Shown here: positions 23,363 through 40,858 of the stretch, in pieces
Position numbering within the stretch: the stretch's first letter is position 1
Layout of the letters: each line of letters starts with the position of its first letter
The notes under the pieces: generated by a model
Seen by the model: only the letters and a program-made list of their open reading frames with translations
Database searches by the model: none
Told to the model about the DNA's origin: nothing
Source: Bacillota bacterium
Lineage (GTDB): Bacteria > Bacillota > Bacilli > Paenibacillales > UBA4045
Assembly: GCA_023441055.1 (NCBI GenBank)
Contig: JAEZQY010000001.1
Coordinates: 81,032 to 145,031, forward strand
Reading direction: 5' to 3'
Length of the DNA stretch: 64,000 bases
Position numbers and translations under genes: made by a program

Positions 23363-23610
23363 TAATATAACGCTCCTCTCGTATTCCACATCCTCAGTCC
23401 AAGGACATTGTATAATAGAATGATAGATATGGTAAATGGTGTTAAAATGTAACGTTATGTATCATCTTGTCGATCCATGTGTAAATGCGTCCCTTACCGC
23501 TCGATTTGTAAAGAAATTGCGTATTCGCTATCATGAATACCAACGAACATAGGAGCGTTGTAAGCAATCAAGCTAGTCATTTCTGAGTGGAGGTGGATGA
23601 TGTGAGCAAT

Positions 23611-24453: not shown

Positions 24454-24479
24454 TCCGCGCACATCGCCGCATGGGAAAA

Positions 24480-24521
24480 TGTGATGAAGATCACTAGCGT
24501 TCCTCATCAATCTTCTATAAT
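24480..24521 (+). promoter_or_regulatory. Crp/Fnr-type box plus -10 element upstream of the RIC gene
   Basis: TGTGAtgaagaTCACT (24480-24495) has its centre 28.5 bp upstream of TATAAT (24516-24521). Confidence 0.55.
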
Positions 24522-24573
24522 GAATGTATAAGCAATGAGATTTATTCTCAGTTGAATAGAAGGAGGACGTCAT

Positions 24574-25293
24574 ATGAAGCCCATTAGGATTGAGCAGAAT
24601 CGGCCAATCGGTGAGATTGTAGCTGATTTCCCGACTGCCGCGCTTATCTTCAAGAAGCACCGCATCGATTTCTGCTGCGGTGGTGATCGGCCGCTGTCAG
24701 TCGCGGCAGGCGCGAAGCAGGTCGACGTTCAGACCGTCATCGAGGAGCTGCATGCCGCATACCAGGCTGAGGCTAATCGCAAGGATCGCGGCACGGATTG
24801 GCAATCCGCGGACTACACAGCGTTAGTCGATCATGTGTTAGATACTCATCACGCCTATCTAAAGCGCGAGCTTAGCGGTATCGGCGAGTTCACGAATCGT
24901 ATTCGCAATGTGCATGGTTATCATCATCCTGAATTGCTGCGCCTCGATGAGCTGTTCCGCCAGGTGAAGGCAGAGCTTGAGGAGCATATGCAGAAGGAGG
25001 AAGCGCAAATCTTCCCGCTTGTGAAGCAATATGCGGCTGCAGGAGACAGAGAACTGCTGGCAGAAGCCGTCAAGACGATTGACGAGCTGGAGGCGGAGCA
25101 TAGCGCAGTAGGCGAACTGCTGGAGGAGATGCGCGAGATTACCGCGGACTATACGCTGCCACCGGAGGCTTGCCGGAGCTATACGGTCACATTCGAGAAG
25201 CTGGAGGAGCTGGAGGATGATATGTTCCAGCATATCCATCTTGAGAATAATATCATGTTCCCTAGACTGGAGAAGGAGCTGAGTGCCTTATGA
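24574..25293 (+). CDS. scdA: Iron-sulfur cluster repair di-iron protein (RIC / ScdA / YtfE family)
   Basis: N-terminal ScdA_N signature (HRIDFCCGGDRPL) plus a hemerythrin-like His/Glu-rich C-domain. AGGAGG RBS. Confidence 0.85.
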   Translation: MKPIRIEQNRPIGEIVADFPTAALIFKKHRIDFCCGGDRPLSVAAGAKQVDVQTVIEELHAAYQAEANRKDRGTDWQSADYTALVDHVLDTHHAYLKRELSGIGEFTNRIRNVHGYHHPELLRLDELFRQVKAELEEHMQKEEAQIFPLVKQYAAAGDRELLAEAVKTIDELEAEHSAVGELLEEMREITADYTLPPEACRSYTVTFEKLEELEDDMFQHIHLENNIMFPRLEKELSAL

Positions 25294-25577
25294 TGAAACT
25301 GCCCATGCTGAAGGAGAAGGATTGGTCGCTGAATCTGGAGGATGAAGCCTTCGTCGACAATCCGCAGGAGCTGATCGAAGAGGCAGTTAAGGCGGTGGAG
25401 ATCACCGCTGCCGGCCATTACGTGAATCTGGTGACGCCTGCTGGAACCGGTCACCCGGAGCAGGGGCTGCTCGGCGAAATCAAGCAAGCTATCGATCGCG
25501 CAGGTGTCGCTTATCAACAGATTGTTTACGTGGACGAATGCGGATGCGGCGGCTTCGTCACCAGAGTATATCGATAA
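25290..25577 (+). CDS. Small conserved protein with a C-terminal CGCGG motif
   Basis: 95 aa ending ...YVDECGCGGFVTRVYR. Its ATG overlaps the RIC stop (ATGA, 25290-25293), which implies translational coupling. Confidence 0.6.
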   Translation: MMKLPMLKEKDWSLNLEDEAFVDNPQELIEEAVKAVEITAAGHYVNLVTPAGTGHPEQGLLGEIKQAIDRAGVAYQQIVYVDECGCGGFVTRVYR

Positions 25578-25595
25578 TTTGCATTAGCTTTTGAG

Positions 25596-25706
25596 GTAGT
25601 TTTGTTGCGATGATTACTCAGGGGGTATAGCTTCACAAAACTAAGCGTATGCTTCCGAAGTAGTTTTGTTGCGATGATTACTCAAGAGGTATAGCTTCAC
25701 AAAACT
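25596..25706 (+). repeat. Two copies of a 47-nt hairpin-capable element (64-bp period)
   Basis: GTAGTTTTGTTGCGATGATTACTCA[G/A]G[G/A]GGTATAGCTTCACAAAACT occurs at 25596-25642 and 25660-25706. Each copy has AGTTTTGT...ACAAAACT inverted ends. No T-run follows either copy. Confidence 0.85.
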
Positions 25707-25723
25707 TGGAGGAGGAACTAATC

Positions 25724-26065
25724 ATGGAAATCAAATCCTTAGGTCCATTGCGAGAGTTCGGCGAGGAACGCTTCACGAAGAGAATTATTCACAAGAAGGA
25801 TGAAAGTGTCGTATTCGTGTTAAACTTCGAGCCGGGACAGGAGCTGCCTACGCATAACCACCCGGGGACGGCTGTCTACATTCTGGTATTATCCGGCTCA
25901 GGCGAGGTGGTGATTGACGGGACGCCGTCCGCAATTACGGAAGATGATGTGGTATGGGTCGATGGAGCAGAGCAGTTCGCGTTCAAGAATACCGGCAGCG
26001 AGCGCGTTACGCTCTATGTCATGCTGGCGAAGATTCCGGATGAGCGATTCGCGCAGAATATCTAA
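25724..26065 (+). CDS. Cupin-domain protein
   Basis: Cupin motif (PTHNHPGTAVYILVLSGSGEVVIDG). GGAGGAGG RBS precedes the ATG at 25724. Confidence 0.75.
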   Translation: MEIKSLGPLREFGEERFTKRIIHKKDESVVFVLNFEPGQELPTHNHPGTAVYILVLSGSGEVVIDGTPSAITEDDVVWVDGAEQFAFKNTGSERVTLYVMLAKIPDERFAQNI

Positions 26066-26083
26066 TGAATGGAGGCTGGCGCG

Positions 26084-27349
26084 ATGACGGCGTCCAAGGC
26101 ACCCACTAATTTATACATTCTGCGATTAAGTTTCATACACTTCGCGACCGGCATCCTGCTATTACTGACAGCGATGCTGGCCGCTATCTGGCTAATTCCG
26201 GATATCGCGCAACTGGGCACATTCCGAGTGACAGAAGGGTGGCTGCTGGCCCATCTGCTGCTGCTCGGCTTCGCCTCCATGACAGCGATCGGCGCGAGCT
26301 ATCAGCTAGTGCAAGTCATCATGCGCACCGCACTGTTCAGCCGGCCGCTCGGATACGTCCAGTATGTCTGCTATACAGTCGGTCTGCTGCTCATCCTGCT
26401 CGGTTTCGGCTGGCGAATCCAGTTCGTGGCGCCGGGCGGCACGCTTGTCATTATCGGCATTATACTATACTGCGTTAATATGGGTATGACCTTGCTGCGC
26501 AAGCGCGAGTGGAACCCCTTCGTGCTGGGGATTGCGCTCAGTGCGGCCGCCTTCCTAGCGGCAGGTGTCATGGGCACGCTGCTGGGGCTGTATCTGGCGG
26601 GGAATCTGCCGTCTGCGCTGTCTGCGCTGGAGTACGATGTACTCTTCGGCAGCCATCTGTGGCTAGGGATCGGCGGCTGGCTGTCCGGTCTGATCGTGGT
26701 GTTCAGCTTCAAGCTGCTGCCCATGTTCTATGTGTCACCCAAGAAGGTGACCAGACAAGTGTATGCGATTATAGGCGGCTTCCACACAGGCATTGGGCTG
26801 CAGGTGGTGTCACTGTGGCTTAGACAAGATACGCTTACGCTGGCAGCTTATCTGATCATTGGCGGTTCAGCGGTCTGGTTCACGATCTACTTGTTCCGGG
26901 TACGTGCACTCAGCCGCGCGAAGTCGCCAGTCGGTGCTGTGCGGACAGCCTTCTGGCTTATCCCATTACATACCGCGCTGTTCCTGCTATGGGGCGCGAT
27001 GATCCAGCTTCATATAGCAGAGGACCTACTCCATGAGAGCGTTCTGGCGTTCATAACACTAGGGTGGTTCATCCCTTCAATCTTAGCCTATCTGTCCAAA
27101 ATACTGCCATTCCTCTGGTGGGCGCATCGGTTCCGTACCGGGGCGCAGAAGAAGGCAGCTGTGCTGCTCTCTGAGATGCTGCCAGAGCGTCGGCTGACGC
27201 TGGAGCTGACTGGATACATAATAGGCGCTGCCTTACTGTCAATTGGCTTCTACTACGGTTCTGCCGCAATTGTGGTATTAGGGCAGGTGCTTATGACGGG
27301 CTTCCTGCTGGTCTATCTGTGTGAGCTGACCCGCACCTTCCGATACTGA
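26084..27349 (+). CDS. 12-TM His-bearing integral membrane protein, paralogue 1 (NnrS-like / haem-copper-oxidase-subunit-I-like; family not verified)
   Basis: About 12 hydrophobic helices. Blocks are shared with the protein at 36541-37773 (GW..AHLL.LG.A.M...GA.YQL; H.WLG..GW......FSFK.LPMFY.S; .LAYLSKI.PFLWW.H.). GGAGG lies 8 nt before the ATG at 26084, which is 18 nt past the cupin stop at 26063-26065. Confidence 0.6.
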   Translation: MTASKAPTNLYILRLSFIHFATGILLLLTAMLAAIWLIPDIAQLGTFRVTEGWLLAHLLLLGFASMTAIGASYQLVQVIMRTALFSRPLGYVQYVCYTVGLLLILLGFGWRIQFVAPGGTLVIIGIILYCVNMGMTLLRKREWNPFVLGIALSAAAFLAAGVMGTLLGLYLAGNLPSALSALEYDVLFGSHLWLGIGGWLSGLIVVFSFKLLPMFYVSPKKVTRQVYAIIGGFHTGIGLQVVSLWLRQDTLTLAAYLIIGGSAVWFTIYLFRVRALSRAKSPVGAVRTAFWLIPLHTALFLLWGAMIQLHIAEDLLHESVLAFITLGWFIPSILAYLSKILPFLWWAHRFRTGAQKKAAVLLSEMLPERRLTLELTGYIIGAALLSIGFYYGSAAIVVLGQVLMTGFLLVYLCELTRTFRY

Positions 27350-27454
27350 TGTAGCTGATAATGGAAATCTTAAGAAGCACGCTATATCTAGGGTGCGTTG
27401 GGTTATAATGGTATAGTGGGATCATAAAGCTGAATCGATAGGGGTGTCTAGTCG

Positions 27455-29137
27455 ATGGACGATCAGGATTTGCGAATACGCAGTCATGTGATTAGCGAGG
27501 GAACCGGCCGCGCGCCGAATCGAGCCATGCTAAGGGCGGTCGGGTTTACGGATGCAGACTTCCAGAAGCCGATGATTGGCATAGCCAGCACCTGGAGTGA
27601 AGTGACGCCATGCAATATGCATATCGATCAGCTCGCCGTGCATGCCAAGCAAGGAGCTAAAGATAATGGCGGAGCGCCGCTAACCTTCGGTACGATTACG
27701 GTATCAGACGGGATTGCGATGGGGCATGTCGGGATGCGCTACTCGCTCCCGAGTCGGGAGGTAATCGCCGATTCGATCGAGACCGTTGTAAGCGCAGAGC
27801 GATTGGATGGTCTAGTAGCGATTGGCGGCTGCGACAAGAATATGCCAGGCTGTCTAATCGCTATGGGGAGGCTGAACGTCCCTGCTGTATTCGTGTACGG
27901 CGGTACGATTGCGCCGGGTGATCTACACGGACAGGATATCGATATTGTCTCCGCCTTCGAGGCAGTTGGACAATTCAATCAGGGCAGTATCAATTCAGAG
28001 CAATTGTATGACGTCGAGTGCCATGCTTGTCCGGGAGCTGGCTCCTGCGGGGGTATGTATACGGCGAATACGATGGCTTCCGCTATCGAGGCAATGGGAA
28101 TGAGCTTGCCGGGCAGCTCATCGAATCCGGCGGAGACGTCGCTCAAGCAAGAGGATTGCTTCAAGGCCGGACAGGCGGTAGTCGATCTGCTACGCAAGGG
28201 AATCTATCCGCGGGATATCATGACTAGGCTGGCGTTCGAGAATGCGATCACTGTGGTGATGGCGCTGGGCGGGTCGACGAATGCCATCCTGCATCTGCTC
28301 GCCATGGCTCATGCGGTTGATGTTGATCTGACGCTGGACGACTTCGAGACAATCCGCGCTCGTGTGCCGATGCTGGCGGATATGAAGCCGAGCGGCCGCT
28401 ATGTCATGCAGGATCTATATGAGGCAGGCGGTGTCCCGGCTGTTATGAAGCTGCTGCTGGATGAGGGGCTGCTTCATGGTCACTGTATAACTGTTACTGG
28501 CAGGACCGTCGCCGAGAATCTGGCTGATCTTCCCGGATTGGTCGATGGTCAGGAGGTCATCCGACCGATGTCCAATCCGGTGAAGGCATCAGGCCATCTG
28601 GTCGTGCTGAAGGGGAATCTGGCACCGGAGGGCTCCGTTGCCAAGACATCAGGCCTCAAGTCAACGCGATTCATTGGGCCGGCGAGCGTGTTCGATTCCG
28701 AGGAGGAAGCAACCACTGCGCTGCTGGAGGATCGGATTCAGCCAGGTGATGTGATCGTCATCCGCTATGCCGGACCGAAGGGTGGACCAGGTATGTCCGA
28801 GATGCTAGCGATTACAGCGATTGTAATCGGCAAGGGCTTGAACGAGCAGGTTGCGCTGTTAACAGATGGACGCTTCTCAGGTGGGACGCACGGCTTCGTA
28901 GTCGGGCATATTGCCCCTGAAGCTCAAGTCTGTGGACCGATCGCGCTCATCCAGGACGGCGATATCATTACCATCGACAGCGAGACGCGAGAACTCAGCG
29001 TTGACGTATCGGAGGCTGAGCTCGCAGAGCGACGCCAGACCTGGGTCGAACCGCCACTCCGCTATAATCGAGGTGTGCTGTACAAGTACGCGCAGCTCGT
29101 CTCCTCGGCCTCTAAAGGCGCGGTTACTGATTTGTAA
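27455..29137 (+). CDS. ilvD: Dihydroxy-acid dehydratase
   Basis: 560 aa with typical IlvD blocks ([37 protein letters not shown]). Confidence 0.95.
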
Positions 29138-29387
29138 CCGGATTAGATTGTAGAAGCACGATACATGATTCACAGATAATCGCCCGTAGGCTATCCAGGA
29201 TTGGATAAGCAACGGGCGATTCGCCTGTCCAGAGTCGGATAAGCAGCGCGGGCGATTGGCAGAAGAAATTAAAGTATAAGGCACTTAAACTAACGGGCAG
29301 TTATTTGAAACTCACACTCTCACAATAAAGGATAATTATAGAAAAAATGTAGAACTCTCCAGATAACAACTAAAACGGAGGTGTGTA

Positions 29388-30440
29388 ATGTCAGATAATA
29401 TGGGGATTAACATTAATAAAGTACAATTGGATAACTATGTATTTAGCGGTATTGATGCCTCTTTAGTCGGTGCGATTAAATCAGTTGCTGATTATTATCA
29501 ATTTCCATTGACAACATCATGGATATATGGAATGTCAGGGCTTGCTTTCTTGCACGTACTTGATGAAAACTTAATGGAACCCAATGGAGGACCATCTGAA
29601 CCAGAGGTTTTTAATCTTGTACGTAATATTGGTTTAGAAATAGATGGTCTGCATGTTTATGCAGAAGGTGAAGACTTTTCTAACCTGCAAGCTGTAGCAT
29701 GGGAGAAGGCACAACTAGCCATTACCTCAAAGCAACCAGTTTTCGCAAAAAATATTGATATCGGGAGCCAAACATCAGTTATTTATGCTTATGATGAAGT
29801 CGGTTATTATACACGAACATGGCATACTGGATATGAGAACAGTGAAGACGTCATTCCTTGGAACTTACTAGGCTTAAGTCAATGTCCTTGTATCAACTGC
29901 GAAAATTATCGGAATTCAATCAACCAAACGGTTAACTTAGAAAGTGGTTTGATTTCTTTACACTGGGCTAATCCAATCCAACCAGTAGATGAATTGACTG
30001 CTTTTAAAGAAACACTTGAATTTGTTATACGTTTAAACGAAGAAGGAAGCTATGTGTGGGCGGGAAAAACTTATTTGGTGGGTTCGAAAGCTTATGAAAA
30101 ATGGTTAACTGCTTTGGAAAGTGATAGTGTGGATAAATACTTTTTTAGCCTATTCGTCGAGATTTTATATGAAGCAAGAAGCCATGCAATTAAATTTCTG
30201 TCGGAAATAAAAGGGAGGAACTTTGGGATAAGTGAACAATTGATTGATGCCAGTATAAATAAATATAGTGATGTTTCTGCTGAATATAAAATTTTGAGAG
30301 ACATGTATCCATATCAAGAACCACGTGATAGCGAAATAAAGCAAAAAGAACAGTGTATTGCTATCGTAGCGAAGTTGCATCAATTAGAGATGGACTGTTT
30401 AAAATTCATAAAAAAAATCCACAAAAGCATATCACAATAG
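29388..30440 (+). CDS. Hypothetical protein encoded on an AT-rich island (possibly BtrH_N/DUF4872-like; unverified)
   Basis: 350-aa ORF with a GGAGGTG RBS. The DNA is conspicuously AT-rich compared with the flanking genes. I recognise no catalytic motif with confidence. Confidence 0.55.
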   Translation: MSDNMGININKVQLDNYVFSGIDASLVGAIKSVADYYQFPLTTSWIYGMSGLAFLHVLDENLMEPNGGPSEPEVFNLVRNIGLEIDGLHVYAEGEDFSNLQAVAWEKAQLAITSKQPVFAKNIDIGSQTSVIYAYDEVGYYTRTWHTGYENSEDVIPWNLLGLSQCPCINCENYRNSINQTVNLESGLISLHWANPIQPVDELTAFKETLEFVIRLNEEGSYVWAGKTYLVGSKAYEKWLTALESDSVDKYFFSLFVEILYEARSHAIKFLSEIKGRNFGISEQLIDASINKYSDVSAEYKILRDMYPYQEPRDSEIKQKEQCIAIVAKLHQLEMDCLKFIKKIHKSISQ

Positions 30441-30484
30441 CTGAATGGACTAACGGGATACGATACCTCAATGGCATCAGGCTT

Positions 30485-30790
30485 TTGATAGAATGGCTGG
30501 AGCGGATGAATCGGGCGATAGACTATATTGAAGCGAATCTGACCGAGGAGATCGAATTGAACGAGGCGGCCCGCATGGCCTGCTGCTCGTCTTACCAGTT
30601 CCAACGGATGTTTTCGTTTATTACGGACGTGACGTTGGCAGAGTACATTCGGCGGAGACGGTTGACGCTTGCTGCGTTGGAATTGCAACACAGCGGGGCG
30701 GCGAAGGTGATCGTGTGGCGGAGATTTGCCATCGTTCGTCAGCGGGGATTTGCATCTCGTTCATGCGGCATGCAGCTACCGGAAGACTAG
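30485..30790 (+). pseudogene. Truncated AraC/MarA-type regulator remnant
   Basis: The first HTH is intact (..EWLERMNRAIDYIEANLTEEIELNEAARMACCSSYQFQRMFSFITDVTLAEYIRRRRL). After ...LQHSGAAKVI the sequence degenerates and stops. The second HTH and any effector domain are missing. Confidence 0.55.
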
Positions 30791-30988
30791 ACCGGACATG
30801 TTTCCGTACATGCTTTGTGCCTTCAAAGACAATGCCAGAAATACGGACGGGTACACCTCTGGTTCGCGGTTAGTAAGGCTGCCACGTTAAACTATACGGC
30901 AGCCTTCGTTGAATAAACGGGAAACGATAGTAACAATTGCGTTATTACATACGCCAGATGGGATTCATAAGCAGATGCTCCTCGCCGA

Positions 30989-31225
30989 TCAGGCAAGCTT
31001 GCTGATCTGTACTTGAAAGGTGATGGGACCTTGCTCCACATACTCCCAGCTGTATCCGCCCGGATACATGGATTGGAACTGGAAGTGCAGCGGCTTCGGG
31101 TCGTGGTCGTTAATCAGCAGCATCGCCTCACTCGGATTCAGCTTGGCGAAGGTTTCGAAGATGACTTTATGTTTTAGATGGGGCGGGTATTCGGTAGCGT
31201 TCACTGTTGCAGCATATTGACTCAT
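30989..31225 (-). CDS. DUF2249-domain protein (single domain)
   Basis: 78 aa from MSQYAATV. The pattern ...PPHLKHKVIFETFAKLNPSEAMLLINDHDPKPLHFQF...WEY.EQGP..F.V.I is the DUF2249 pattern as I recall it. AAGGAGGAG RBS. Confidence 0.65.
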   Translation of the reverse strand: MSQYAATVNATEYPPHLKHKVIFETFAKLNPSEAMLLINDHDPKPLHFQFQSMYPGGYSWEYVEQGPITFQVQISKLA

Positions 31226-31264
31226 TAGAAACTCCTCCTTGAATGGATGATGATTGTCATCTTG

Positions 31265-31307
31265 AGTGTAGCAATATGCGCTCAGCACCTGTGTGATGCG
31301 AATCACA
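31265..31307 (-). promoter_or_regulatory. Crp/Fnr-type box plus -10 element upstream of the DUF2249 gene
   Basis: A perfect TGTGAtgcgaaTCACA (31292-31307) has its centre 29.5 bp upstream of TACACT (minus strand, 31270-31265). Confidence 0.55.
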
Positions 31308-31397
31308 TTGTATCATGTCGCACACAATAGACTTAACCTCATCAAGTATTAGGGAATTTCCAGCGGCTAGTTTATAATGAATGGAGGAGGTGCAGCG

Positions 31398-32387
31398 ATG
31401 AAATTTATCGATAATCAAGGGATAACCGATCCACGCATCAATCTTGCGATCGAAGAATATGCGCTCAGACATCTGGATCAGGAGGACGATTACCTCTTGT
31501 TCTATGTGAATGAGCCCTCGATTATTATCGGCAAGAATCAGAATACCGTCGAGGAAATTAATCAGGCCTACGTGGAGGAGCACAGCATTCATGTTGTTCG
31601 AAGATTATCGGGTGGAGGCGCCGTCTATCATGATCTGGGCAATCTGAATTTCAGCTTCATTACCAAGGATGACGGACAGTCCTTCCATAATTATAGAAAG
31701 TTCACGGAACCAGTAGTGGAGGCACTGCATAAACTCGGCGTACAAGCGGAGCTTACCGGACGCAACGATATACAGGTAGGAGAGCGTAAAATTTCCGGCA
31801 ATGCGCAATTCGCGACCAAGGGACGGATGTATTCGCATGGCACGTTAATGCTCCAGACGGACCTGGAGGAGGTGACACGCGCTCTCAAGGCGAATAGGGC
31901 GAAAATTGAATCCAAAGGGATTAAGTCGATTCGCAGCCGAGTGGCGAACATCTCTGAGTTTCTGCGTGAACCAATTACCATGGAACAATTTAAGGATCAT
32001 CTATTAGCTTCTATATTCGGTGGCGGCCAGCGTGAGCAATATGTGCTGCAGGAGGACGATTGGCGCAGAATCGAAGAGATCTCAGCTGCTCGCTATCGGA
32101 CCTGGGAATGGAACTTCGGCAAATCACCTGCCTATAATGTGACAATCTCACGCCGGTTCGAAGGGGTAGGCACGCTCGACATCCGGCTGCAGGTGGAGGG
32201 AGGAATGATCGAATTCGTGAGAATCTTCGGTGATTTCTTCGGAACAGCGGATGTGCAAGAACTGGAGGAGCGGCTGGTGGGTGTGCCTTACAGCCGCGCT
32301 GAGATTGAGGAAGCCTTGGGCAAGCTGGATTTGAAGCCTTATTTTGGCAGGTTGGAGAGCGGGTTGTTCTTCGAGTTGTTCACATAG
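31398..32387 (+). CDS. lplJ: Lipoate--protein ligase
   Basis: MKFIDNQGITDPRINLAIEEYAL...RRLSGGGAVYHDLGNLNFSF is typical of the LplA/LplJ family, and a C-terminal accessory domain is present. GGAGGAGG RBS. Confidence 0.9.
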   Translation: MKFIDNQGITDPRINLAIEEYALRHLDQEDDYLLFYVNEPSIIIGKNQNTVEEINQAYVEEHSIHVVRRLSGGGAVYHDLGNLNFSFITKDDGQSFHNYRKFTEPVVEALHKLGVQAELTGRNDIQVGERKISGNAQFATKGRMYSHGTLMLQTDLEEVTRALKANRAKIESKGIKSIRSRVANISEFLREPITMEQFKDHLLASIFGGGQREQYVLQEDDWRRIEEISAARYRTWEWNFGKSPAYNVTISRRFEGVGTLDIRLQVEGGMIEFVRIFGDFFGTADVQELEERLVGVPYSRAEIEEALGKLDLKPYFGRLESGLFFELFT

Positions 32388-32406
32388 GAGCCCGTATAAC
32401 AGGTTA

Positions 32407-33585
32407 TTATTCGGGCTTTGTCTCTCTTCCAAGCACGAGTAGGGTTACAGCGCCAATGAGCAGCACGATTGTGAACAGGCTGAATATAACAGAATAGGTA
32501 TAGGTCTGGGCGAGCAACCATCCGACGAGCAATGGCGCGATCATGCTGCCGACTCTCCCGACCGCTGAGGCAAGACCTGCGCCAGAGGCCCGTACTGCTG
32601 TTGGGTAATTCTCTGGTGTATAGGCATACAGCGCGCCCCATGCACCGAGATTGAAGAAGGAGAGCATGGCGCCGGATAGAAGCATCACAGTGACGGTTGC
32701 GCTGCTGCCGAAGATGAACGCCGCGATGGCTGTCATCGCCATGAATAGGACGAGCGTAGGCTTGCGGCCGATGCGCTCCACCAGATAGGCAGCCGCGAAG
32801 TAGCCGGGTACCTGGGCAAGCGTCATGATGAGGACATATTCGAAGCTCTGGATTATGCTGTAGCCTTTATCCACGAGTACAGAGGGCAGCCACAGGAACA
32901 TGCCATAATAGGAGAAGGTGATGGCGAACCAGACGGTCCACAGGACGATGGTCTGCTGCTTGTACTGGGTGAAGAGCTGGCTCAGCGGGATGCGAGTTGC
33001 GCGTTTCGTGAACTTGGGAGATTCCGGAATGCGCTTGCGGATGAGCAGCGCATAGACGAGCGGCAGGGAGCCGATAATGACGGCGACGCGCCAGCCGAAG
33101 TCTGGAATGACATAATAAGCGATAATCGCCGCTAAGAGCCAGCCTACCGCCCAGAAGCTCTCGAGCAGGACGACGATACGTCCCCGCTTGTGTGCAGGCG
33201 AGAACTCATTGACCAGCGTTGAGGCGACTGGCAGCTCCGCGCCAAGCCCCAGACCCATGATGAAGCGCAGGACCAGCATGACGGCGAGCCCGGTTGCAGC
33301 TGCGCTGGCTAGACTAGCCATGCCGAAGATGATCAGCGTTGCGAGGAAAATCGGCTTGCGGCCGATGCGATCCGCCATATAGCCGCCGATCGACGCGCCC
33401 AGCGCCATGCCTGCCAGATTAACCGTTCCGAGCAGTCCGGTCTGTGTCGTAGTCAGCCCCCATTCGGAAGCTAGCGAGACGACGATGAAGGACAGAAGAC
33501 CAACATCCATCGCGTCGAACATCCAACCGAAACCCGCGGACCAGAATACTCGTCTCTGCACTCGATCTGACGCTTCTATCATCAT
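32407..33585 (-). CDS. MFS transporter
   Basis: 392 aa, 12 helices, with the MFS motif GGYMADRIGRKP and a second-half repeat LVERIGRKP. Confidence 0.8.
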   Translation of the reverse strand: MMIEASDRVQRRVFWSAGFGWMFDAMDVGLLSFIVVSLASEWGLTTTQTGLLGTVNLAGMALGASIGGYMADRIGRKPIFLATLIIFGMASLASAAATGLAVMLVLRFIMGLGLGAELPVASTLVNEFSPAHKRGRIVVLLESFWAVGWLLAAIIAYYVIPDFGWRVAVIIGSLPLVYALLIRKRIPESPKFTKRATRIPLSQLFTQYKQQTIVLWTVWFAITFSYYGMFLWLPSVLVDKGYSIIQSFEYVLIMTLAQVPGYFAAAYLVERIGRKPTLVLFMAMTAIAAFIFGSSATVTVMLLSGAMLSFFNLGAWGALYAYTPENYPTAVRASGAGLASAVGRVGSMIAPLLVGWLLAQTYTYSVIFSLFTIVLLIGAVTLLVLGRETKPE

Positions 33586-33655
33586 ATAATCCCCCTCATT
33601 GGACTAGTTATAGTATCCCACAGACCCGTATGGATTTACACACCTATTCAGACTG

Positions 33656-33684
33656 AAAAGCGACTCCCCAGTCGGAGAGTCGCT
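33656..33684 (-). terminator. Terminator after nirK
   Basis: AGCGACTC / GAGTCGCT stem followed by TTTT on the minus strand. Confidence 0.6.
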
Positions 33685-33699
33685 ATTCCCAGTCACTTA

Positions 33700-34689
33700 T
33701 CAGTGACTCATCGGCTTGGCACCATTGTCCTTGCCATCTTCGGTCACTCTTAGTATCGCCACCGCACCCTTGCTCGCATGGTTGAACTGATGGGTCACAA
33801 TGGCGTAGTCGCCAGCTTCTGTGACAGTGAATTCAACTACCGCGCCGCCGCTTGCTGGCAGCATGACCGTCTGCATTCCCTTCAGCACATTAGCGGGATT
33901 ACCATCCAGGTAGACGTTGTCCATGATCGTGCCCACGACGTGAAGGGAGCTTACTTCATTCGGGCCTACGTTGTTCACATAGAGGCGAACCTTGTCGCCG
34001 ACCTTAGCCAGCAGGGGCTTCTCCTTAAGGCCGAAGTCATTGCCGTTGAATACGACGTAGGAGGGTACACCGTTCAGGAAGTCACTGTAATCCTTCTCCT
34101 TATACCATTCGCTCTGTACGATTACATATTCCTGATCGATCTCAGCGTCAGTAGGATAGCCTTCAGTTGGCTCTACGATAATTACACCATACATCCCGTT
34201 CGCGATATGGGCCAGTACTGGTGCGGTTCCACAGTGGTACATGAATACGCCTGGCATATTGGCGGGATAAGTGAAGGTGCCTTCTTCTTCGGGCATGATA
34301 TCGATGAATTTCTCACTCGGCGATGCATGCACCGCATGGAAGTCCATGGAGTGGGGAACATCGGGATCGAGATTCTTCAGTGTGAAGTTAATGATATCGC
34401 CTTGCTTAACACGCAGTACAGGCCCCGGCACAGTGCCGTTGAATGTCCAGGCGTTATAGAATACGCCCTTGGAGATCTCCACATCAGTTACCTGCGCGGT
34501 CATCTCAATATTGACAATGTTGCCGTTACGCTCGACAATCGGTTCGATGGGCGGCTGGTTGATCTTCGCAGGGGCTGCAGCTTCTGCTGCTGGCGGATTA
34601 GACACAGGTGCTGCTTTGTTAGATCCACACCCGGTTAAAATCAATGCGATGGCGGACAGTAAGATGGCAGTTTTCTTTATGGCTAGCAT
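33700..34689 (-). CDS. nirK: Copper-containing nitrite reductase (NirK), lipoprotein form
   Basis: Lipobox LTGCGS. Type-2/type-1 Cu ligand blocks are present (PHSMDFHAVH; MYHCGTAPVLAHIANGMYG). It has a two-cupredoxin length of about 330 aa. ATG 34689 follows AAAGGTGA. Confidence 0.85.
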   Translation of the reverse strand: MLAIKKTAILLSAIALILTGCGSNKAAPVSNPPAAEAAAPAKINQPPIEPIVERNGNIVNIEMTAQVTDVEISKGVFYNAWTFNGTVPGPVLRVKQGDIINFTLKNLDPDVPHSMDFHAVHASPSEKFIDIMPEEEGTFTYPANMPGVFMYHCGTAPVLAHIANGMYGVIIVEPTEGYPTDAEIDQEYVIVQSEWYKEKDYSDFLNGVPSYVVFNGNDFGLKEKPLLAKVGDKVRLYVNNVGPNEVSSLHVVGTIMDNVYLDGNPANVLKGMQTVMLPASGGAVVEFTVTEAGDYAIVTHQFNHASKGAVAILRVTEDGKDNGAKPMSH

Positions 34690-34798
34690 GAGAATCACCT
34701 TTCCTTCTTATAATTGTGATTTCCTTCTCAACCAGCCGGAAAAAGTTTTGCCTGTCTGTTCGAGCTATCATCCGCTATCGGCTGGTTCTTATGATTCA

Positions 34799-34841
34799 AG
34801 CTTACGTTTTTAAGGAGAAACCAAATGTGATTGAGAACACA
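34799..34841 (-). promoter_or_regulatory. Crp/Fnr-type box plus -10 element upstream of nirK
   Basis: TGTGAttgagaACACA (34826-34841, 9/10 match) has its centre 29.5 bp upstream of TAAGCT (minus strand, 34804-34799). Confidence 0.45.
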
Positions 34842-34876
34842 TCTCAATTAGCTGTCGTTATGTCGCCACAATTGCA

Positions 34877-34918
34877 ATAAAAAATCAGGTAATGTGATGA
34901 TAATCACACTGCCTGATT
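34877..34918 (-). terminator. Terminator of the crp-GNAT unit (its stem contains a perfect TGTGAT-N4-ATCACA palindrome)
   Basis: Minus strand reads AATCAGGcagTGTGATtatcATCACAttaCCTGATTTTTTATT, a long hairpin plus a T-run. Confidence 0.7.
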
Positions 34919-34958
34919 GTAAATATACTTACAGTTATAGGTTATAGAGAGAGCAAGC

Positions 34959-35390
34959 TTATCTCCCAATCGTCTTCTCCATCACGACATGTGGCATATC
35001 CGCTTCCAGGAAGAGATCCGACGTCGTCTGATAGCCCAACTGGGTATAGAAGGACTCCGCGTGTGTCTGGGCATGCAGCTTCAGCTGCGTCATATTGTGC
35101 TGGATCGCGTATTGTTCCATGGCTTCCATTAAGTGTCTCCCGTATCCTCTTCTGCGATGCGGGGCTAAGATACAGAACCGCTCGACCTTGACGAATGGAT
35201 AGATGCTGCGTAATCGGCCTGTTCCGATTGGCAGCTCTCCATCGTAGAGGATGAAGTGGATGGACTCGGCTTCATGCTCATCTACTTCGAGTTCCATTGG
35301 AACCTGTTGCTCCTCCACGAACACTTGCATACGGATGTGAAATGCTGACTTCAGTTGTTCCTCTGTTGATGCAACCTCGATCTTCAGCAT
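34959..35390 (-). CDS. GNAT-family N-acetyltransferase
   Basis: Pattern ILAPHRRRGYGRHLMEAM. Start taken at MLKIEV, which follows GAAAGG. A GTG start at 35426 overlapping the crp stop is the alternative. Confidence 0.65.
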   Translation of the reverse strand: MLKIEVASTEEQLKSAFHIRMQVFVEEQQVPMELEVDEHEAESIHFILYDGELPIGTGRLRSIYPFVKVERFCILAPHRRRGYGRHLMEAMEQYAIQHNMTQLKLHAQTHAESFYTQLGYQTTSDLFLEADMPHVVMEKTIGR

Positions 35391-35422
35391 GTGATCGTCG
35401 ACCTTTCTATTCCATGTCCAAC

Positions 35423-36109
35423 TCACTTCACCAATAGCTCCTTCAGTCGATCAATGTCATATATCACATAACCAGTGCGGTCGGTTTCCAGGATACCATC
35501 CTTGCGCAGCTGGTTGATCAGTCGATTAACCGTCTCGCGAGTTGTGCCGATCGTGCTGGCGAACTCCTGGTTAGTCATTGGAACATTGATATGGATCGCG
35601 CCGTCTCTGGATGTACCGTACTTCTCCGCTAGGGTCAGGAGGAAGGAGAGGCCGCGGTCCTGCACGTCATTACCTGTCAACTCCTGCAGCTTGCGCTGCA
35701 GCTCTTCGATCTTCGTACTGAGTCCTCGCATCACCTTGATTGATATTTCGGGAATACGAATCAGAAGCTGCTCGAATGAACGAATGGGAATAGCCAGCAG
35801 CTTGGTATCGACGATGGCCTCTGTTGTTGCAGGGTAGGGATGTTGATTGAACAATCCCGTATGCGGGAACATCTCGCCGGATTTCAGGAAGGAGACAATA
35901 TGCTCATTGCCATTCTCATCAGTCTTGAATGCCTTGACCAGACCGTCCTGTATGAAGTATACCGCTTCCTTATCATCGCCTTCGATGAAGATAATCGTCC
36001 GCTTGCGGTAAGAACGTTGAATGGTAATGGTGTGGATCTGCTCCAATTCTTCATCGGTAAGGTCACGGAACAATGGAACCTTGCGTAGAATCTCCAATTC
36101 ATGCTTCAT
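35423..36109 (-). CDS. Crp/Fnr-family transcriptional regulator (cysteine-free)
   Basis: cNMP-binding-type beta-roll (LRKVPLFRDLTDEEL...) plus a C-terminal HTH with recognition helix TRETVNRLINQL. The 228-aa translation contains no Cys. Confidence 0.85.
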   Translation of the reverse strand: MKHELEILRKVPLFRDLTDEELEQIHTITIQRSYRKRTIIFIEGDDKEAVYFIQDGLVKAFKTDENGNEHIVSFLKSGEMFPHTGLFNQHPYPATTEAIVDTKLLAIPIRSFEQLLIRIPEISIKVMRGLSTKIEELQRKLQELTGNDVQDRGLSFLLTLAEKYGTSRDGAIHINVPMTNQEFASTIGTTRETVNRLINQLRKDGILETDRTGYVIYDIDRLKELLVK

Positions 36110-36156
36110 CCTCTGCGAATTCCCCTTTCATCACATAACGGGAAAAATGATAAAGA

Positions 36157-36189
36157 CCCCTTCAATAAAGTATAACCTTTTTTGAAGGG
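36157..36189 (-). terminator. Terminator after the DUF59 gene
   Basis: CCCCTTCAA / TTGAAGGGG stem. On the minus strand it is followed by a T-rich tract. Confidence 0.65.
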
Positions 36190-36204
36190 GGTTGGAATCC
36201 ATTT

Positions 36205-36513
36205 CTAGAAAAACGATAGCTGCTCCTTAGCCGCATCAGACATCTTCTCAGGTGTCCATGGCGGGCTCCAGACGACGTTCACATGCACAGCGTTTACCGC
36301 TGGCAGTCCCAGCAAGGCTCGCTCCACGCCGCCAGCTATTGTATCATGCATCGGGCAGCCTGGCGTAGTCAGTGTCATCGTGACGGTAACAATGCCGTCG
36401 TTATCTTGTTCGATGGCATAGATAAGTCCCAGATCAACAATATTCACGCCAAGCTCGGGGTCATAGACCAATCGCAGCTGGTCCATAATCAATTCCTGAT
36501 CAGTTAACATCAT
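36205..36513 (-). CDS. DUF59 / SufT-like metal-sulfur cluster assembly factor
   Basis: VYDPELGVNIVDLGLIY...TLTTPGCPMHD is the DUF59 signature. ATG 36513 follows GAGAGGAGTGG. Confidence 0.8.
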   Translation of the reverse strand: MMLTDQELIMDQLRLVYDPELGVNIVDLGLIYAIEQDNDGIVTVTMTLTTPGCPMHDTIAGGVERALLGLPAVNAVHVNVVWSPPWTPEKMSDAAKEQLSFF

Positions 36514-36540
36514 TTCCACTCCTCTCAGAATCGTAATAGA

Positions 36541-37773
36541 TCAACGTAAGAATACATTCGCGATCAATCCCATATAGCCGATCGAACTGATCGACAGCAG
36601 GCAGCCGCCGATCGTGATAAGCGGCATAACCGATGTGCCGATCCCGATCACGAGCAGCGCGAGGCTCGCTGCGATCAGGCTCAGCCCGATCCGTACATAC
36701 CGGTCATTGATCAGGTCAGACATCGTGGGAATCTTCTTCTTCCCGACCTGCGGGCCGTACTTATGCGTCCACCATAGGAAGGGCACGATCTTGGACAGAT
36801 AGGCCAGCATCGTGATGCCCAGAAACCCCCATAGGTAAATCCAGCCCAGCATCGTGCTGATGCGCACCTGCAGCACCTGGTCTGGCACAGCAGCAGCGGC
36901 GATCAGCACAATCAGGCTCACCAGTAGCAGCATTCGCGCCGACCAGATGGACCAGCGTATGCCCTCGCCCGGATTAGGCTTATGCTTGGCTCGTCGAATT
37001 TGCCGAATGTGATAGCTGTATAGGGCGAGTGCGGTGACAAGGAGGAGCAGGGCGAACCACTTCGCTAGATCATGCCAGTCCAGCAGGAAAGCGACGGCGC
37101 CGAGCGCGGCTGATGCATGCCAGAGATGTACGATATACTTCTGCAAGGTTTCGGAATGGCCGTGCGATAGATAGAACATCGGCAGCATCTTGAAGCTGAA
37201 GCCGATGATCAGCAGCCCAAACCAGCCGATCATACCTAGCCAGATATGCGCGTGGAAGATCTGCTCATGCATGAAGCTCCACCAGCCGAACGCGAAGTTC
37301 ATGCCCATTGCCATTCCGCTGAGACCTGTGAAGAAGAGGTAGACTACAGCGAGTCCCGCGCTGACCGTGATGGGTGTCCACTTACCGGCACGTACCAGAG
37401 TGGCAAACAGATTGATCGCGAATAGAATAATTCCGATATAAGCGACGGTGGCCGAGATGCCGATCAGCATGAAATTTGCTTGGTAGAAGCCGACCAGCAA
37501 GCCTGCAGAGCCAATGGTGAACACGCCATAATTAGTGAAGCCCAGCTTCTCACTGAAGATATTGGATTGCAGCACCACATTGATCAACTGATACACAGCA
37601 CCCATTGCAATCATCGTAGCCCAGCCGAGCACGAGCAGATGCGCGCTGAACCAGCCTTGGGGGCTGCGCGGATGCTCACCGATCCAGCCTGCCGCGTCAG
37701 CAAGATTGAAGCCCTGAAACAGGAAGAAGCAGACCATGCCAGTTATAATGAATGAGAAGGGGAGTCGGAACAT
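36541..37773 (-). CDS. 12-TM His-bearing integral membrane protein, paralogue 2
   Basis: 410 aa, alignable by eye over its whole length with 26084-27349 (same conserved His-containing blocks). AGGAGG RBS. Confidence 0.6.
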   Translation of the reverse strand: MFRLPFSFIITGMVCFFLFQGFNLADAAGWIGEHPRSPQGWFSAHLLVLGWATMIAMGAVYQLINVVLQSNIFSEKLGFTNYGVFTIGSAGLLVGFYQANFMLIGISATVAYIGIILFAINLFATLVRAGKWTPITVSAGLAVVYLFFTGLSGMAMGMNFAFGWWSFMHEQIFHAHIWLGMIGWFGLLIIGFSFKMLPMFYLSHGHSETLQKYIVHLWHASAALGAVAFLLDWHDLAKWFALLLLVTALALYSYHIRQIRRAKHKPNPGEGIRWSIWSARMLLLVSLIVLIAAAAVPDQVLQVRISTMLGWIYLWGFLGITMLAYLSKIVPFLWWTHKYGPQVGKKKIPTMSDLINDRYVRIGLSLIAASLALLVIGIGTSVMPLITIGGCLLSISSIGYMGLIANVFLR

Positions 37774-37790
37774 GGCGTGATCCTCCTAAC

Positions 37791-38342
37791 TTAAGATTTC
37801 GTTATCGTTACAATGGCAGACCCATCTTCTTGATTATCAACGCTATAGGTGTAATTGAGCGCATGGAGTTCTTCAATCAGGAACATGGGCACGCGATCAT
37901 TGTGAATAACCACCTGATCGCCAGCTGAGGCGCTGCTCAGCTTGGCTAATGTACGCACCATCGGCTGTGGCGGCTCCAGACCGCGATTGTCGAGCATGAA
38001 TACACGAGGCTCCGCGGCGGAATCACCCTGAGCTTCAGCAGACGCGTCACCCAGCTCATCATCCGCAGGCGCATCAGAGTGAGTAGCCTGATCACCAGTC
38101 AGCAGATGCTTCATACTCTTATGAACGAAGGTCGTGATCCAGTGCTCATCACCGACCTTCTCCACCTTGTTGTGGAAGCCCTTGGTCTTCATTAGACCGA
38201 GCAGAGGAGTCGGCTTGAACGTGGCATGCAGGACGAATAAGTCGTCCTTCTCCAGCTTCTTCACCGCATCCATAATTAGCTGGAATGGCTCCAGCTTCTT
38301 CTTCAATTGCTCTCTAACATCGAGCTCGATAGTCCGCGTCAT
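37791..38342 (-). CDS. Protein with two DUF2249-like domains joined by an acidic linker
   Basis: Domain 1 runs IELDVRE...LFVLHATFKPTPLLGLM...HWITTF. Domain 2 runs MLDNRGLEPPQPMVRTL...VVIHNDRVPMFLIEEL...GSAIVTITK. The start overlaps the upstream stop (ATGA). Confidence 0.6.
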   Translation of the reverse strand: MTRTIELDVREQLKKKLEPFQLIMDAVKKLEKDDLFVLHATFKPTPLLGLMKTKGFHNKVEKVGDEHWITTFVHKSMKHLLTGDQATHSDAPADDELGDASAEAQGDSAAEPRVFMLDNRGLEPPQPMVRTLAKLSSASAGDQVVIHNDRVPMFLIEELHALNYTYSVDNQEDGSAIVTITKS

Positions 38343-38683
38343 ACCGACACCTCCTTGAGCTGCTCTTTGGCTGCTTCGTACAACCCAGCCATACCGCCGT
38401 AGAGCGCATAGAAGAACGAGTCCGGCGCATCAAGCGAGAAGGATAAGTATTGCTTGGGATCGGTTCCCAGCATCTTCTCGAACAGGCTGGCGGAATCGTA
38501 GGCATAGAAGCAGAAGTAGGTGTACTCGAATTCCGGCATCTTATCGCGTATGGTCACGATGTCCTGCGCATATCGCGGGATATTCTGAGCAGCTTCCCGC
38601 ACCATGCTGATTGCATCGTCCAGCGTAACGTGAATCTGGATCGTCTTCTCGTCCACAATATCAATATGAGCCATAGGAAACAT
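38339..38683 (-). CDS. Hypothetical protein (first gene of the operon)
   Basis: 111-114-aa ORF (ATG 38683 or 38674) following AAGGAGTGG. I recognise no motif. Confidence 0.5.
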   Translation of the reverse strand: MFPMAHIDIVDEKTIQIHVTLDDAISMVREAAQNIPRYAQDIVTIRDKMPEFEYTYFCFYAYDSASLFEKMLGTDPKQYLSFSLDAPDSFFYALYGGMAGLYEAAKEQLKEVSV

Positions 38684-38717
38684 CCACTCCTTGTGAGAAT
38701 CATTATCAATAATTCTC

Positions 38718-38759
38718 AGTATAGCGCTCCTTCATATTCAGAACGTGATCCTAATCACA
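38718..38759 (-). promoter_or_regulatory. Crp/Fnr-type box plus -10 element upstream of the 38683 operon
   Basis: CGTGAtcctaaTCACA (38744-38759, 9/10 match) has its centre 28.5 bp upstream of TATACT (minus strand, 38723-38718). Confidence 0.5.
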
Positions 38760-38790
38760 CATGGCGATCATGCTGCACACTGCGCATAGA

Positions 38791-38830
38791 AAAAGCGGTG
38801 AAGCCAGAGTAACTCTGCTGCTTCACCGCT
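38791..38830 (-). terminator. Terminator after pepF
   Basis: An 11-bp stem (AGCGGTGAAGC / GCTTCACCGCT) with a T-run on the minus strand. Confidence 0.75.
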
Positions 38831-38855
38831 TATTCGAAATTCCTATGAGATTCAC

Positions 38856-40646: not shown

Positions 40647-40736
40647 GGTACTCCTCCTGTCAGTAGCGTTAAGTGCGGACGCGTAGCTGCCGCATCCACA
40701 ATTGACGCATAAGAATAGAATGGTTAGAACAGCAAT

Positions 40737-40831: not shown

Positions 40832-40858
40832 TTTCTCCAGCTTCAAACCCGAAGGATG

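Follow-up and report, generated by a model that had tools for sequence, protein, structure and literature searches.

Genes and palindromic boxes at the locus

The DNA considered here, called the window throughout, is a 64-kb stretch from a Bacillota bacterium of the Paenibacillales (contig JAEZQY010000001.1, positions 81,032 to 145,031 of the forward strand), in which 16-bp palindromes of the form TGTGA-N6-TCACA precede genes for a copper nitrite reductase (nirK), the iron-sulfur (Fe-S) cluster repair protein RIC/ScdA, proteins of the DUF2249 family, and an operon that also encodes a Crp/Fnr-family regulator (Table 1). Four of these palindromes (boxes 1 to 4) had been described in the original prediction together with four hexamers of the form T-A-N3-T, and re-reading of the sequence placed all of them at the claimed coordinates and on the claimed strands. 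The distances from the box centre to the first base of the hexamer were likewise as claimed, 28.5, 29.5, 29.5 and 28.5 bp for boxes 1 to 4. A 305-kb metagenome contig (ENA ERZ27268945, contig k141_83976; designated L030), which has the same gene order and a 410-amino-acid (410-aa) protein 100% identical to that of the window, was taken as the genome of the window or of a near-identical strain.

Proteins were identified with Pfam, NCBIfam, a PDB sequence search, AlphaFold2 models and Foldseek. From their arrangement, the boxes would define four units. Unit 1 would comprise RIC, a CGCGG-family small protein, a cupin, a 426-aa membrane protein related to the heme-copper oxidases (HCO-like) and probably the dihydroxy-acid dehydratase gene ilvD; unit 2, the single DUF2249 gene, possibly together with the divergent lipoate-protein ligase gene lplJ; and unit 3, nirK. 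Unit 4 would contain the genes for a 114-aa protein, a tandem DUF2249 protein, the 410-aa membrane protein with an HCO fold, a DUF59 protein, the regulator and a GNAT acetyltransferase.

When the whole window was searched for TGTGA-N6-TCACA with at most one mismatch, 8 boxes were found against 1.79 expected, and none of 100 dinucleotide shuffles reached 8. Six of the 8 are intergenic, all of them between 24480 and 38759, for which the probability is about 1.6e-5 (6 or more of 8, the coding fraction being put roughly at 0.91 and the non-coding DNA at about 9%). The two others, at 17608 and 42177, have one mismatch each, fall inside long open reading frames (ORFs) and are probably chance matches. 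Boxes followed by TANNNT at 28.5 or 29.5 bp numbered 5, compared with a mean of 0.065 and a maximum of 1 in 200 first-order Markov simulations. None of the four box promoters was detected by a simple promoter scan of the window, as expected for class II promoters that have no -35 element.

Table 1. Coordinates of the genes and sequence elements discussed in the text (window coordinates unless a locus is named)
Feature	Position	Strand	Basis or remark
Box 1, TGTGATGAAGATCACT, putative class II site of the RIC operon promoter	24480-24495	+	orthologous boxes 5' of RIC in L027, L028, L029, L007, L020
-10 TATAAT, 28.5 bp from box 1 centre	24516-24521	+	L027 RIC promoter has the same cTATAATga
Fur-family-like 7-1-7 palindrome TGAGATTTATTCTCA	24536-24550	.	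about +9 to +23 of the RIC promoter
RIC/ScdA di-iron iron-sulfur cluster repair protein	24574-25293	+	TIGR03652, 258.8 bits vs cutoff 204.7; Pfam ScdA_N + Hemerythrin
CGCGG-family putative radical-SAM-modified small protein	25290-25577	+	TIGR03995, 90.9 bits vs cutoff 70; same position in L027 (PF26005)
Cupin_2 protein	25724-26065	+	Pfam; listed ORF from TTG 25706, ATG 25724 likelier start
426-aa membrane protein	26069-27349	+	paralog of the 410-aa HCO-fold protein, ~30% identity
ilvD, dihydroxy-acid dehydratase	27455-29137	+	Pfam
Single-domain DUF2249 protein, 78 aa from ATG 31225	30989-31225	-	Pfam PF10006, E = 1e-20; ribosome-binding site AGGAGG 31234-31239; ATG 31225 likelier start than GTG 31306
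-10 TACACT of the DUF2249 gene, 29.5 bp from box 2 centre	31265-31270	-	L027 identical, gtTACACTc
Box 2, perfect palindrome TGTGATGCGAATCACA, divergent intergenic region	31292-31307	.	orthologous boxes in L027, L029, L002, L024, L028, L013, L005
Candidate -10 TAGACT, 28.5 bp from box 2 centre, other side, facing lplJ	31328-31333	+	single genome
nirK, copper nitrite reductase, lipoprotein	33700-34698	-	TIGR02376 E = 1.3e-58, below family cutoff; Pfam Cu-oxidase_2/3; likely start ATG 34689
Downstream nirK box TGAGAAGGAAATCACA, one mismatch	34715-34730	-	25 nt before the start codon, just 5' of the ribosome-binding site
-10 TAAGCT of nirK, 29.5 bp from box 3 centre	34799-34804	-	L026 identical; TAATCT in L024, L028
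Box 3, nirK promoter box, TGTGTTCTCAATCACA toward nirK, also given as TGTGATTGAGAACACA	34826-34841	-	
Intrinsic terminator of the regulator-GNAT transcript, 15-bp stem then UUUUUUAUU	34877-34918	-	-17.9 kcal/mol, z = -4.5
Distal nirK box, perfect palindrome TGTGATGATAATCACA	34893-34908	.	centre about -108.5
GNAT acetyltransferase	34959-35426	-	Pfam; start overlaps regulator stop; same arrangement in L026
Crp/Fnr-family regulator, cysteine-free, GEMFPH motif	35423-36109	-	Pfam cNMP_binding + HTH_Crp_2
DUF59 / FeS_assembly_P protein	36205-36519	-	Pfam PF01883
410-aa 12-helix membrane protein, heme-copper-oxidase superfamily fold	36541-37773	-	AlphaFold2 + Foldseek
Tandem DUF2249 (TusA-like) protein	37791-38342	-	Pfam PF10006, two copies
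114-aa protein, first operon gene	38339-38683	-	no Pfam/NCBIfam match; 106-109-aa gene at same position in L024, L027, L028, L029
Fur-family-like 7-1-7 palindrome TGATAATGATTCTCA	38694-38708	-	about +4 to +18 of the main-operon promoter
-10 TATACT, 28.5 bp from box 4 centre	38718-38723	-	
Box 4, TGTGATTAGGATCACG toward the operon, also given as CGTGATCCTAATCACA	38744-38759	-	orthologous boxes in L027, L004, L003, L002
True Fnr genes in other loci	L005 11674-12501; L006 11433-12206; L020 3937-4800; L029 6768-7499		

Box spacing and conservation in related Bacillales

A regulator-based scan of the GTDB species genomes yielded 23 related loci (numbered with the prefix L), in which the best match to the window regulator was only 62% identical; exact-protein look-ups added the closer relatives L024/L025, L026, L027, L028 and L029, with regulators of 70-87% identity. 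Reading each box of up to one mismatch from the window and the 23 loci (24 sources) in both orientations gave 120 oriented sites, and among these a TANNNT hexamer began 29.5 bp from the box centre in 38, 28.5 bp in 7 and 30.5 bp in 5, as against about 2 for each other offset. With the closer relatives added, 71 promoter-type sites were obtained (55 at 29.5 bp, 11 at 28.5 and 5 at 30.5), and the matrix built from them reads aTGTGAT-N4-ATCACAt, with the information content concentrated in TGTGA/TCACA. If a -10 element is taken to span -12 to -7, a centre 29.5 bp before its first base lies at -41.5. The class II placement (-41.5/-40.5) claimed for the window is thus supported by the 29.5-bp distance in 55 of 71 sites, as a geometry taken from the box-to--10 spacing alone.

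The same box was present 5' of orthologous genes in a survey of 27 related Bacillales loci. Phylogenetic footprinting, which had been proposed with the original prediction, showed that the boxes are kept 5' of the orthologous RIC, DUF2249, nirK and operon promoters in genomes whose regulators are 41-87% identical. The box-preceded genes of the relatives are nirK, qNor, RIC, hemerythrin, hemerythrin-PAS, DUF2249, radical-SAM and cupin genes and the regulator gene itself; qNor was found in L005, L013, L017 and L029, with a box 5' of it in L005, L013 and L017, and cupin genes have boxes of their own in L024 and L028. In alignments of diverged intergenic regions, the conserved islands were the box, the -10 element and the ribosome-binding site. 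The gene order DUF2249 - (~108 aa) - 2xDUF2249 - 410aa - DUF59 - regulator - nirK is found in L002, L003, L004, L024, L027 and L028. The genes scattered across the window stand side by side in L024 and L028, indicating that they belong together, as had been supposed from the boxes. Overall, the boxes are very probably functional class II sites of a CRP/FNR-type protein that mark a conserved NO/nitrite regulon (NO, nitric oxide).

The cysteine-free regulator, its candidate signal and competing explanations

The regulator encoded in unit 4 is 228 aa long and contains no cysteine at all. It belongs to the CRP/FNR superfamily by its matches to PF00027 (4.5e-22), PF13545 (1.8e-18) and PF00325, and its AlphaFold2 model matched CRP, GlxR, NtcA and FNR structures with template modelling (TM) scores of 0.7-0.8. 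B. subtilis Fnr coordinates a [4Fe-4S] cluster through C227, C230 and C235 plus an Asp. The regulators of L022/L023, which are 29% identical to that of the window and adjoin ywiC, end in C-EGC-PIDIC, the Bacillus Fnr [4Fe-4S] motif, and this C-terminal cysteine cluster is absent from the window regulator and its orthologs. With no cysteine and no C-terminal CxxC cluster, the window regulator is not a Bacillus-type Fnr, and a C-terminal [4Fe-4S] cluster is not possible. The original prediction had called the motif the one reported for Bacillus Fnr; the TGTGA-N6-TCACA consensus and the R-E...R helix agree with this, whereas the regulator of the cluster is itself not Fnr. In L005, L006, L020 and L029 a true Fnr with a C-terminal CxCxxCPxxxC is encoded a few kb or less from the cysteine-free regulator. 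The recognition helix is TTRETVNRL in the window regulator and AREVVSRL in the true Fnr of L022/L023, and by the roles of its residues the CRP-type R-E...R pattern matches TGTGA half-sites. The shared (T/A)RExVxR helix suggests that both kinds of regulator should read the same half-site, so that the two probably share one box.

Within the cysteine-free group, the sequence GEMFPHTG(F/L)F..YPA is invariant or nearly so, and F81-P82-H83 is invariant. In a search of 1.84 billion proteins, FPH was found in 41 of the 150 best 50%-identity cluster representatives, mostly top-ranked ones. NCBIfam scores lay far under the cutoffs for CRP (PRK11753, 96 vs 266), NtcA (84.5 vs 245) and Fnr (83.4 vs 228), the region of the cassette that contacts cAMP in CRP is replaced by GEMFPHTGLFNQHPYPA, and the database names of the homologs are all plain 'Crp/Fnr family'. 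BLASTP and MAFFT agreed in aligning His83 with His77 of Rhodospirillum rubrum CooA (sequence checked as identical to 1FT9) and with the equivalent His of Carboxydothermus hydrogenoformans CooA (taken from the same PDB search), the context being SGEMF-PHTG in the regulator and SGDMFCMHSG and AGDIFCTHTR in the CooA proteins. R. rubrum His77 (C. hydrogenoformans His82) is the proximal heme ligand. The position of His83 on this ligand points to a heme-based gas sensor, and since the targets make or remove NO or repair NO damage, NO would be the likeliest gas.

The best explanation of these data, to which we assign a probability of roughly 0.7, is that Paenibacillaceae and other Bacillales share a conserved regulon for NO/nitrite stress and denitrification. 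A dimeric CRP/FNR-family activator would bind the 16-bp palindromes aTGTGAT-N4-ATCACAt, which would take the place of the -35 element with their centres 29.5 (sometimes 28.5) bp 5' of the -10, that is, at -41.5/-40.5, and from there the activator would recruit RNA polymerase as class II activators do. The cognate factor is probably the local cysteine-free regulator, whose place in unit 4 would make the circuit positively autoregulated. By analogy with ANR-DNR, this regulator may act downstream of a true Fnr on the same box. Its signal could be NO, or another diatomic gas, bound to heme on the family-invariant His83; we put the chance that it senses NO through a His83-bound heme a little below even. 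A more far-reaching version, which we offer tentatively and with the odds against it, is that the GEMFPH proteins are an undescribed, cysteine-free subfamily of heme-based NO sensors of Gram-positive denitrifiers and nitrite reducers, acting downstream of Fnr on identical boxes, controlling an uncharacterised machinery that detoxifies NO or rebuilds metal centres, and with nirK checked by an operator before its ribosome-binding site. That machinery would consist of three DUF2249 domains, two reduced HCO-fold membrane proteins, the DUF59 protein, the CGCGG small protein and a spare IlvD.

Several observations weigh against this regulon reading or parts of it. No recognisable NO reductase is encoded in the window, and seven distant loci (L008, L009, L012, L014, L015, L016 and L019), whose regulators are 41-48% identical, had no box with at most one mismatch within flanks of up to 10 kb on each side, nor a convincing one at 2 mismatches. 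The Fnr-ywiC promoters of L022/L023 carry the same box at the same 29.5-bp spacing, and the neighbouring true Fnr paralogs share the R-E-x-V-N-R helix, so the boxes could be theirs, partly or wholly. The fold search of the regulator returned the generic CRP fold and did not discriminate among CooA, DNR, NtcA and CRP, and DNR (3dkw, E = 2.6e-14) was only the 47th-ranked PDB sequence match, compared with 8e-24 for NtcA. The second heme ligand of CooA, the N-terminal Pro2, has no counterpart in the regulator, whose N-terminus, MKHELEIL, is poorly conserved among orthologs, and the His83 loop was modelled at moderate confidence (predicted local distance difference test, pLDDT, about 71-83).

The Fnr observations would be accounted for if the boxes were ordinary Fnr sites, read by an O2-sensing [4Fe-4S] Fnr encoded outside the window that would switch on all four units in anoxia, with the local regulator either not the factor or one that fine-tunes. 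TGTGA-N6-TCACA is indeed the Bacillus/Paenibacillus Fnr consensus, bound by P. polymyxa Fnr1 and Fnr3 in electrophoretic mobility shift assays (bioRxiv 10.1101/2020.01.03.894683), and in the four loci with a neighbouring true Fnr the recognition helix of the two proteins is the same. We nevertheless regard this explanation as unlikely: within the 64-kb window only the cysteine-free regulator is encoded, it is embedded in the box-4 operon in at least six genomes, the regulon (nirK, qNor, RIC and hemerythrins) resembles the DNR/NnrR regulons more than that of B. subtilis Fnr, and a conserved paralog of the same specificity is the ANR-DNR pattern, in which both proteins act. It is somewhat unlikely that regulon and regulator are as proposed and the effector is something other than NO on heme, either a small metabolite in the GEMFPH pocket or signal-independent control by concentration. 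NtcA binds 2-oxoglutarate and CRP binds cAMP, and the best PDB sequence matches of the regulator were NtcA and actinobacterial CRP/GlxR, not CooA or DNR; autoregulation through box 4 would give concentration control, and Thermus DnrT is concentration-dependent and insensitive to O2 and nitrate in vitro (PMC6282519). The invariant His83 on the CooA heme ligand, in a similar SGxMF(x)xHxG context, argues against this, as do the low NCBIfam scores for CRP, NtcA and Fnr and the targets, which are all tied to NO production, removal or damage. As for the boxes being chance palindromes or pieces of terminators and repeats with no regulatory role, the intragenic boxes at 17608 and 42177 do look like chance, and the box at 34893-34908 tops a terminator hairpin, but neither the shuffles nor the simulations reached the number of boxes or of correctly spaced boxes in the window, and box and spacing are kept where the intergenic DNA has otherwise diverged. 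The comparative data thus refute this explanation, which we consider extremely improbable.

Nitrite reduction and NO regulation in Gram-positive bacteria are known mainly through B. subtilis Fnr, ResDE and NsrR. In the searchable literature we found no NO-responsive CRP/FNR activator of Bacillales equivalent to DNR/NnrR and no description of a window-type Bacillales regulator or regulon, including in PMC1274295 and a 2021 review (PMC8139620). The proposed circuit resembles that of ANR-DNR in Pseudomonas aeruginosa and of NnrR in alpha-proteobacteria, where a CRP/FNR paralog without Fe-S cysteines activates nitrite reductase, NO reductase and RIC/DnrN-type genes from class II sites and coexists with an O2-sensing Fnr reading the same box. 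It differs in the box itself (TTGAT-N4-ATCAA in DNR/NnrR), in the weak sequence similarity to DNR, which ranked below NtcA and CRP, and in the GEMFPH motif, which is specific to the window subfamily; the regulator falls outside the DNR/NnrR clade, and the hosts here are Gram-positive spore formers. Rodionov et al. 2005 (PMC1274295) connect COG4309/DUF2249 with nor genes in NnrR/NsrR regulons, haloarchaeal denitrification is accompanied by induction of DUF2249 genes (PMC11218638), and in Thermus thermophilus such genes are controlled by DnrT, a CRP-like activator encoded with drpAB in a denitrification island (PMC6282519). DnrT reportedly does not respond to a signal and acts together with DnrS.

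B. subtilis Fnr acts from sites with the same -41.5/-40.5 class II placement as is predicted here, and its regulon contains nar, narK and arfM. It also shares the TGTGA-N6-TCACA consensus (bioRxiv 10.1101/2020.01.03.894683) and the R-E...R helix with the window, unlike which it has cysteines and does not have nirK, RIC, DUF2249 and HCO-like genes as its targets. P. polymyxa has the cysteine-free paralogs Fnr5 and Fnr7, whose signal is unknown (bioRxiv 10.1101/2020.01.03.894683). The CO sensor CooA (1FT9, 2FMY) is alike in the position of its proximal-ligand His, in the SG(D/E)MF..H.G context and in domain architecture. It is only about 27% identical, however, it has a Pro2-type distal ligand, and the window regulator has one residue fewer between Phe and His; the target of CooA is CO dehydrogenase as opposed to NO/nitrite genes, coo genes occur in none of the loci, and heme binding is here only predicted. 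HcpR recognises CRP-like TGTGA-type boxes in some lineages. It is likewise a predicted or proven NO-linked CRP/FNR factor of nitrosative-stress genes in anaerobes (PMC1274295), but its core target hcp is absent from every locus examined.

The type of circuit is already known; the putative sensor subfamily is undescribed, the promoter rule is very clean and nirK has a three-box architecture. If the reading is true, it names a candidate for the regulator and, in His83, a sensor residue open to testing, gives a sharp motif and promoter geometry for genome-wide regulon prediction in Paenibacillaceae, and places DUF2249, the reduced HCO-like family, the 114-aa family and the CGCGG proteins, together with the radical-SAM partners of the last, in a functional context. 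The emission of NO and N2O by soil Bacillota with nirK is a further matter on which it bears.

nirK boxes, operon proteins and neighbouring elements

Where the original prediction had assumed one nirK box, three are present, the two additional ones being the perfect box at 34893-34908 and the one-mismatch box at 34715-34730. The layout of three boxes is kept in L024, L026 and L028, and two of the three in L027 and L006. The distal box lies 66-68 bp 5' of the promoter box in L024, L026, L027 and L028, and the promoter box is always of the imperfect TGTGT...ATCACA form in these four loci and the window. The downstream box is perfect and lies 23-28 nt before the ATG in L024, L026 and L028, and L006 has a box just 5' of the nirK ribosome-binding site. 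The downstream box keeps a constant distance from the ribosome-binding site, whereas relative to the promoter it ranges from about +70 to +98, and this fixed position together with the retention of the exact protein-binding sequence favours a DNA operator. By hypothesis, the downstream box is probably an operator that limits the synthesis of NirK and hence of NO. The hairpin that terminates the regulator-GNAT transcript in the window has the distal box at its top; this long-loop terminator was missed by a simple terminator scan. On the + strand, TACAGT (34930-34935) lies 29.5 bp from the distal box, and a transcript from it would be antisense to the GNAT and regulator genes; the equivalent box of L026 serves a divergent radical-SAM gene that is missing in the window, so TACAGT is perhaps a relic promoter. 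Between the distal and promoter boxes there is a conserved island, ATTGTGGCGACATAACGACAG (34852-34872, minus strand), also present in L024, L026, L027 and L028 as TTGT..C...(C/T)(G/A)ACA, to which a further factor could bind, near -75.

The 410-aa protein of the box-4 operon matched nothing in Pfam (E up to 10), NCBIfam or the PDB sequence search, and the 426-aa, 114-aa and 350-aa proteins matched nothing in Pfam and NCBIfam. The AlphaFold2 model of the 410-aa protein (pLDDT 93) had as its top Foldseek matches the cbb3 subunit CcoN (3mk7) and the NorB subunit of cNOR (3o0r_B/4xyd_A), with TM scores of 0.70-0.77. The label 12TM given to it originally was right as to the 12 helices and had missed the heme-copper-oxidase fold. 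About one third of the homologs listed have a precomputed Pfam COX1 match and some are named 'heme-copper oxidase family protein'; on the window proteins COX1 stayed below significance. The 410-aa clade has no more than four invariant His (45, 176, 204 and 255), of which only His45 and His176 are common to the 426-aa paralog. Canonical heme-copper oxidases use six His ligands for two hemes and CuB/FeB. With only His45 and His176 invariant across both paralog groups, the two proteins appear to be reduced members of the heme-copper-oxidase fold, not canonical oxidases or NO reductases. Both genes are in box-controlled operons, near DUF2249, DUF59 and cupin genes.

The 95-bp gap between the DUF59 and regulator genes contains a hairpin, CCCCTTCAA...TTGAAGGGG, followed by a T-rich run (36130-36200, minus strand), and a sigma-A-like TTCCAA-17-TATACT. 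Together these suggest partial termination plus a basal promoter for the regulator, whose expression is probably both basal and autoregulated.

A Fur-like element (TGATAATnATTCTCA / TGAGATTTATTCTCA) lies directly 3' of the -10 of the main-operon and RIC promoters and recurs in orthologous operon and hemerythrin-PAS promoters, for instance at L027 8668-8682 and L003 7542-7556 and in promoters of L004 and L002. Its right half is always ATTCTCA, as against ATTATCA in Fur sites. The palindrome may be a second, repressor input (iron, peroxide or NO); NsrR, Rex and ResD sites were considered and dropped, their motifs being judged dissimilar.

The ilvD gene follows the 426-aa gene by 105 bp in the window and has a TATAAT of its own without a box. 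In L027 the order is RIC-CGCGG-424aa-V4R-ilvD with a 42-bp gap before ilvD (L027 15746-17446), and ilvD probably belongs to the RIC operon as a downstream gene. The sensitivity of the Fe-S enzyme IlvD to NO is well established, which makes membership plausible; being the last gene of the RIC operon in the relative with the closest synteny, ilvD is perhaps an NO-induced spare copy of an NO-sensitive Fe-S dehydratase. The lplJ gene (31377-32387) is perhaps in the regulon as well, divergent from box 2. Both genes had been named as lying between the units, and they do lie there, but the co-operonic ilvD of L027 and the TAGACT facing lplJ indicate that both may be members. The lplJ gene and the transporter gene of the major facilitator superfamily were also confirmed. 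A second LplA/LipM-like gene (23587-24453) ends 27 bp before box 1, and, speculatively, salvaged lipoate could let cells under NO stress do without the Fe-S enzyme LipA.

No homologs of the radical-SAM, qNor, hemerythrin-PAS and V4R regulon members of the relatives were found in the window. A radical-SAM gene is missing from the whole 64 kb despite the CGCGG-family protein, a 'radical-SAM target'; the same island has a radical-SAM gene with its own box in L026, L027, L029, L002/L003 and L013, and in L011 such a gene adjoins a box that faces the regulator gene. A 64-bp tandem duplication (25596-25723; GTAGTTTTGTTGCGATGATTACTCA at 25596 and 25660) lies between the CGCGG and cupin genes, and each unit contains the inverted repeat AGTTTTGT...ACAAAACT. 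The RNA fold of 25578-25712 has an energy of -44.3 kcal/mol (z = -4.4). The tandem element is absent from 30 related loci, and an Rfam scan of 23000-41000 (E up to 0.1) matched nothing, indicating that neither it nor the palindromes of the window are known RNAs. Finally, the GC content falls to 41-43% at 29000-31000, compared with about 53% in the flanks; this AT-rich island contains the 350-aa ORF, is annotated in L030 with a 94-aa fragment of an AraC-type helix-turn-helix protein, and looks like an insertion between ilvD and the DUF2249 gene.

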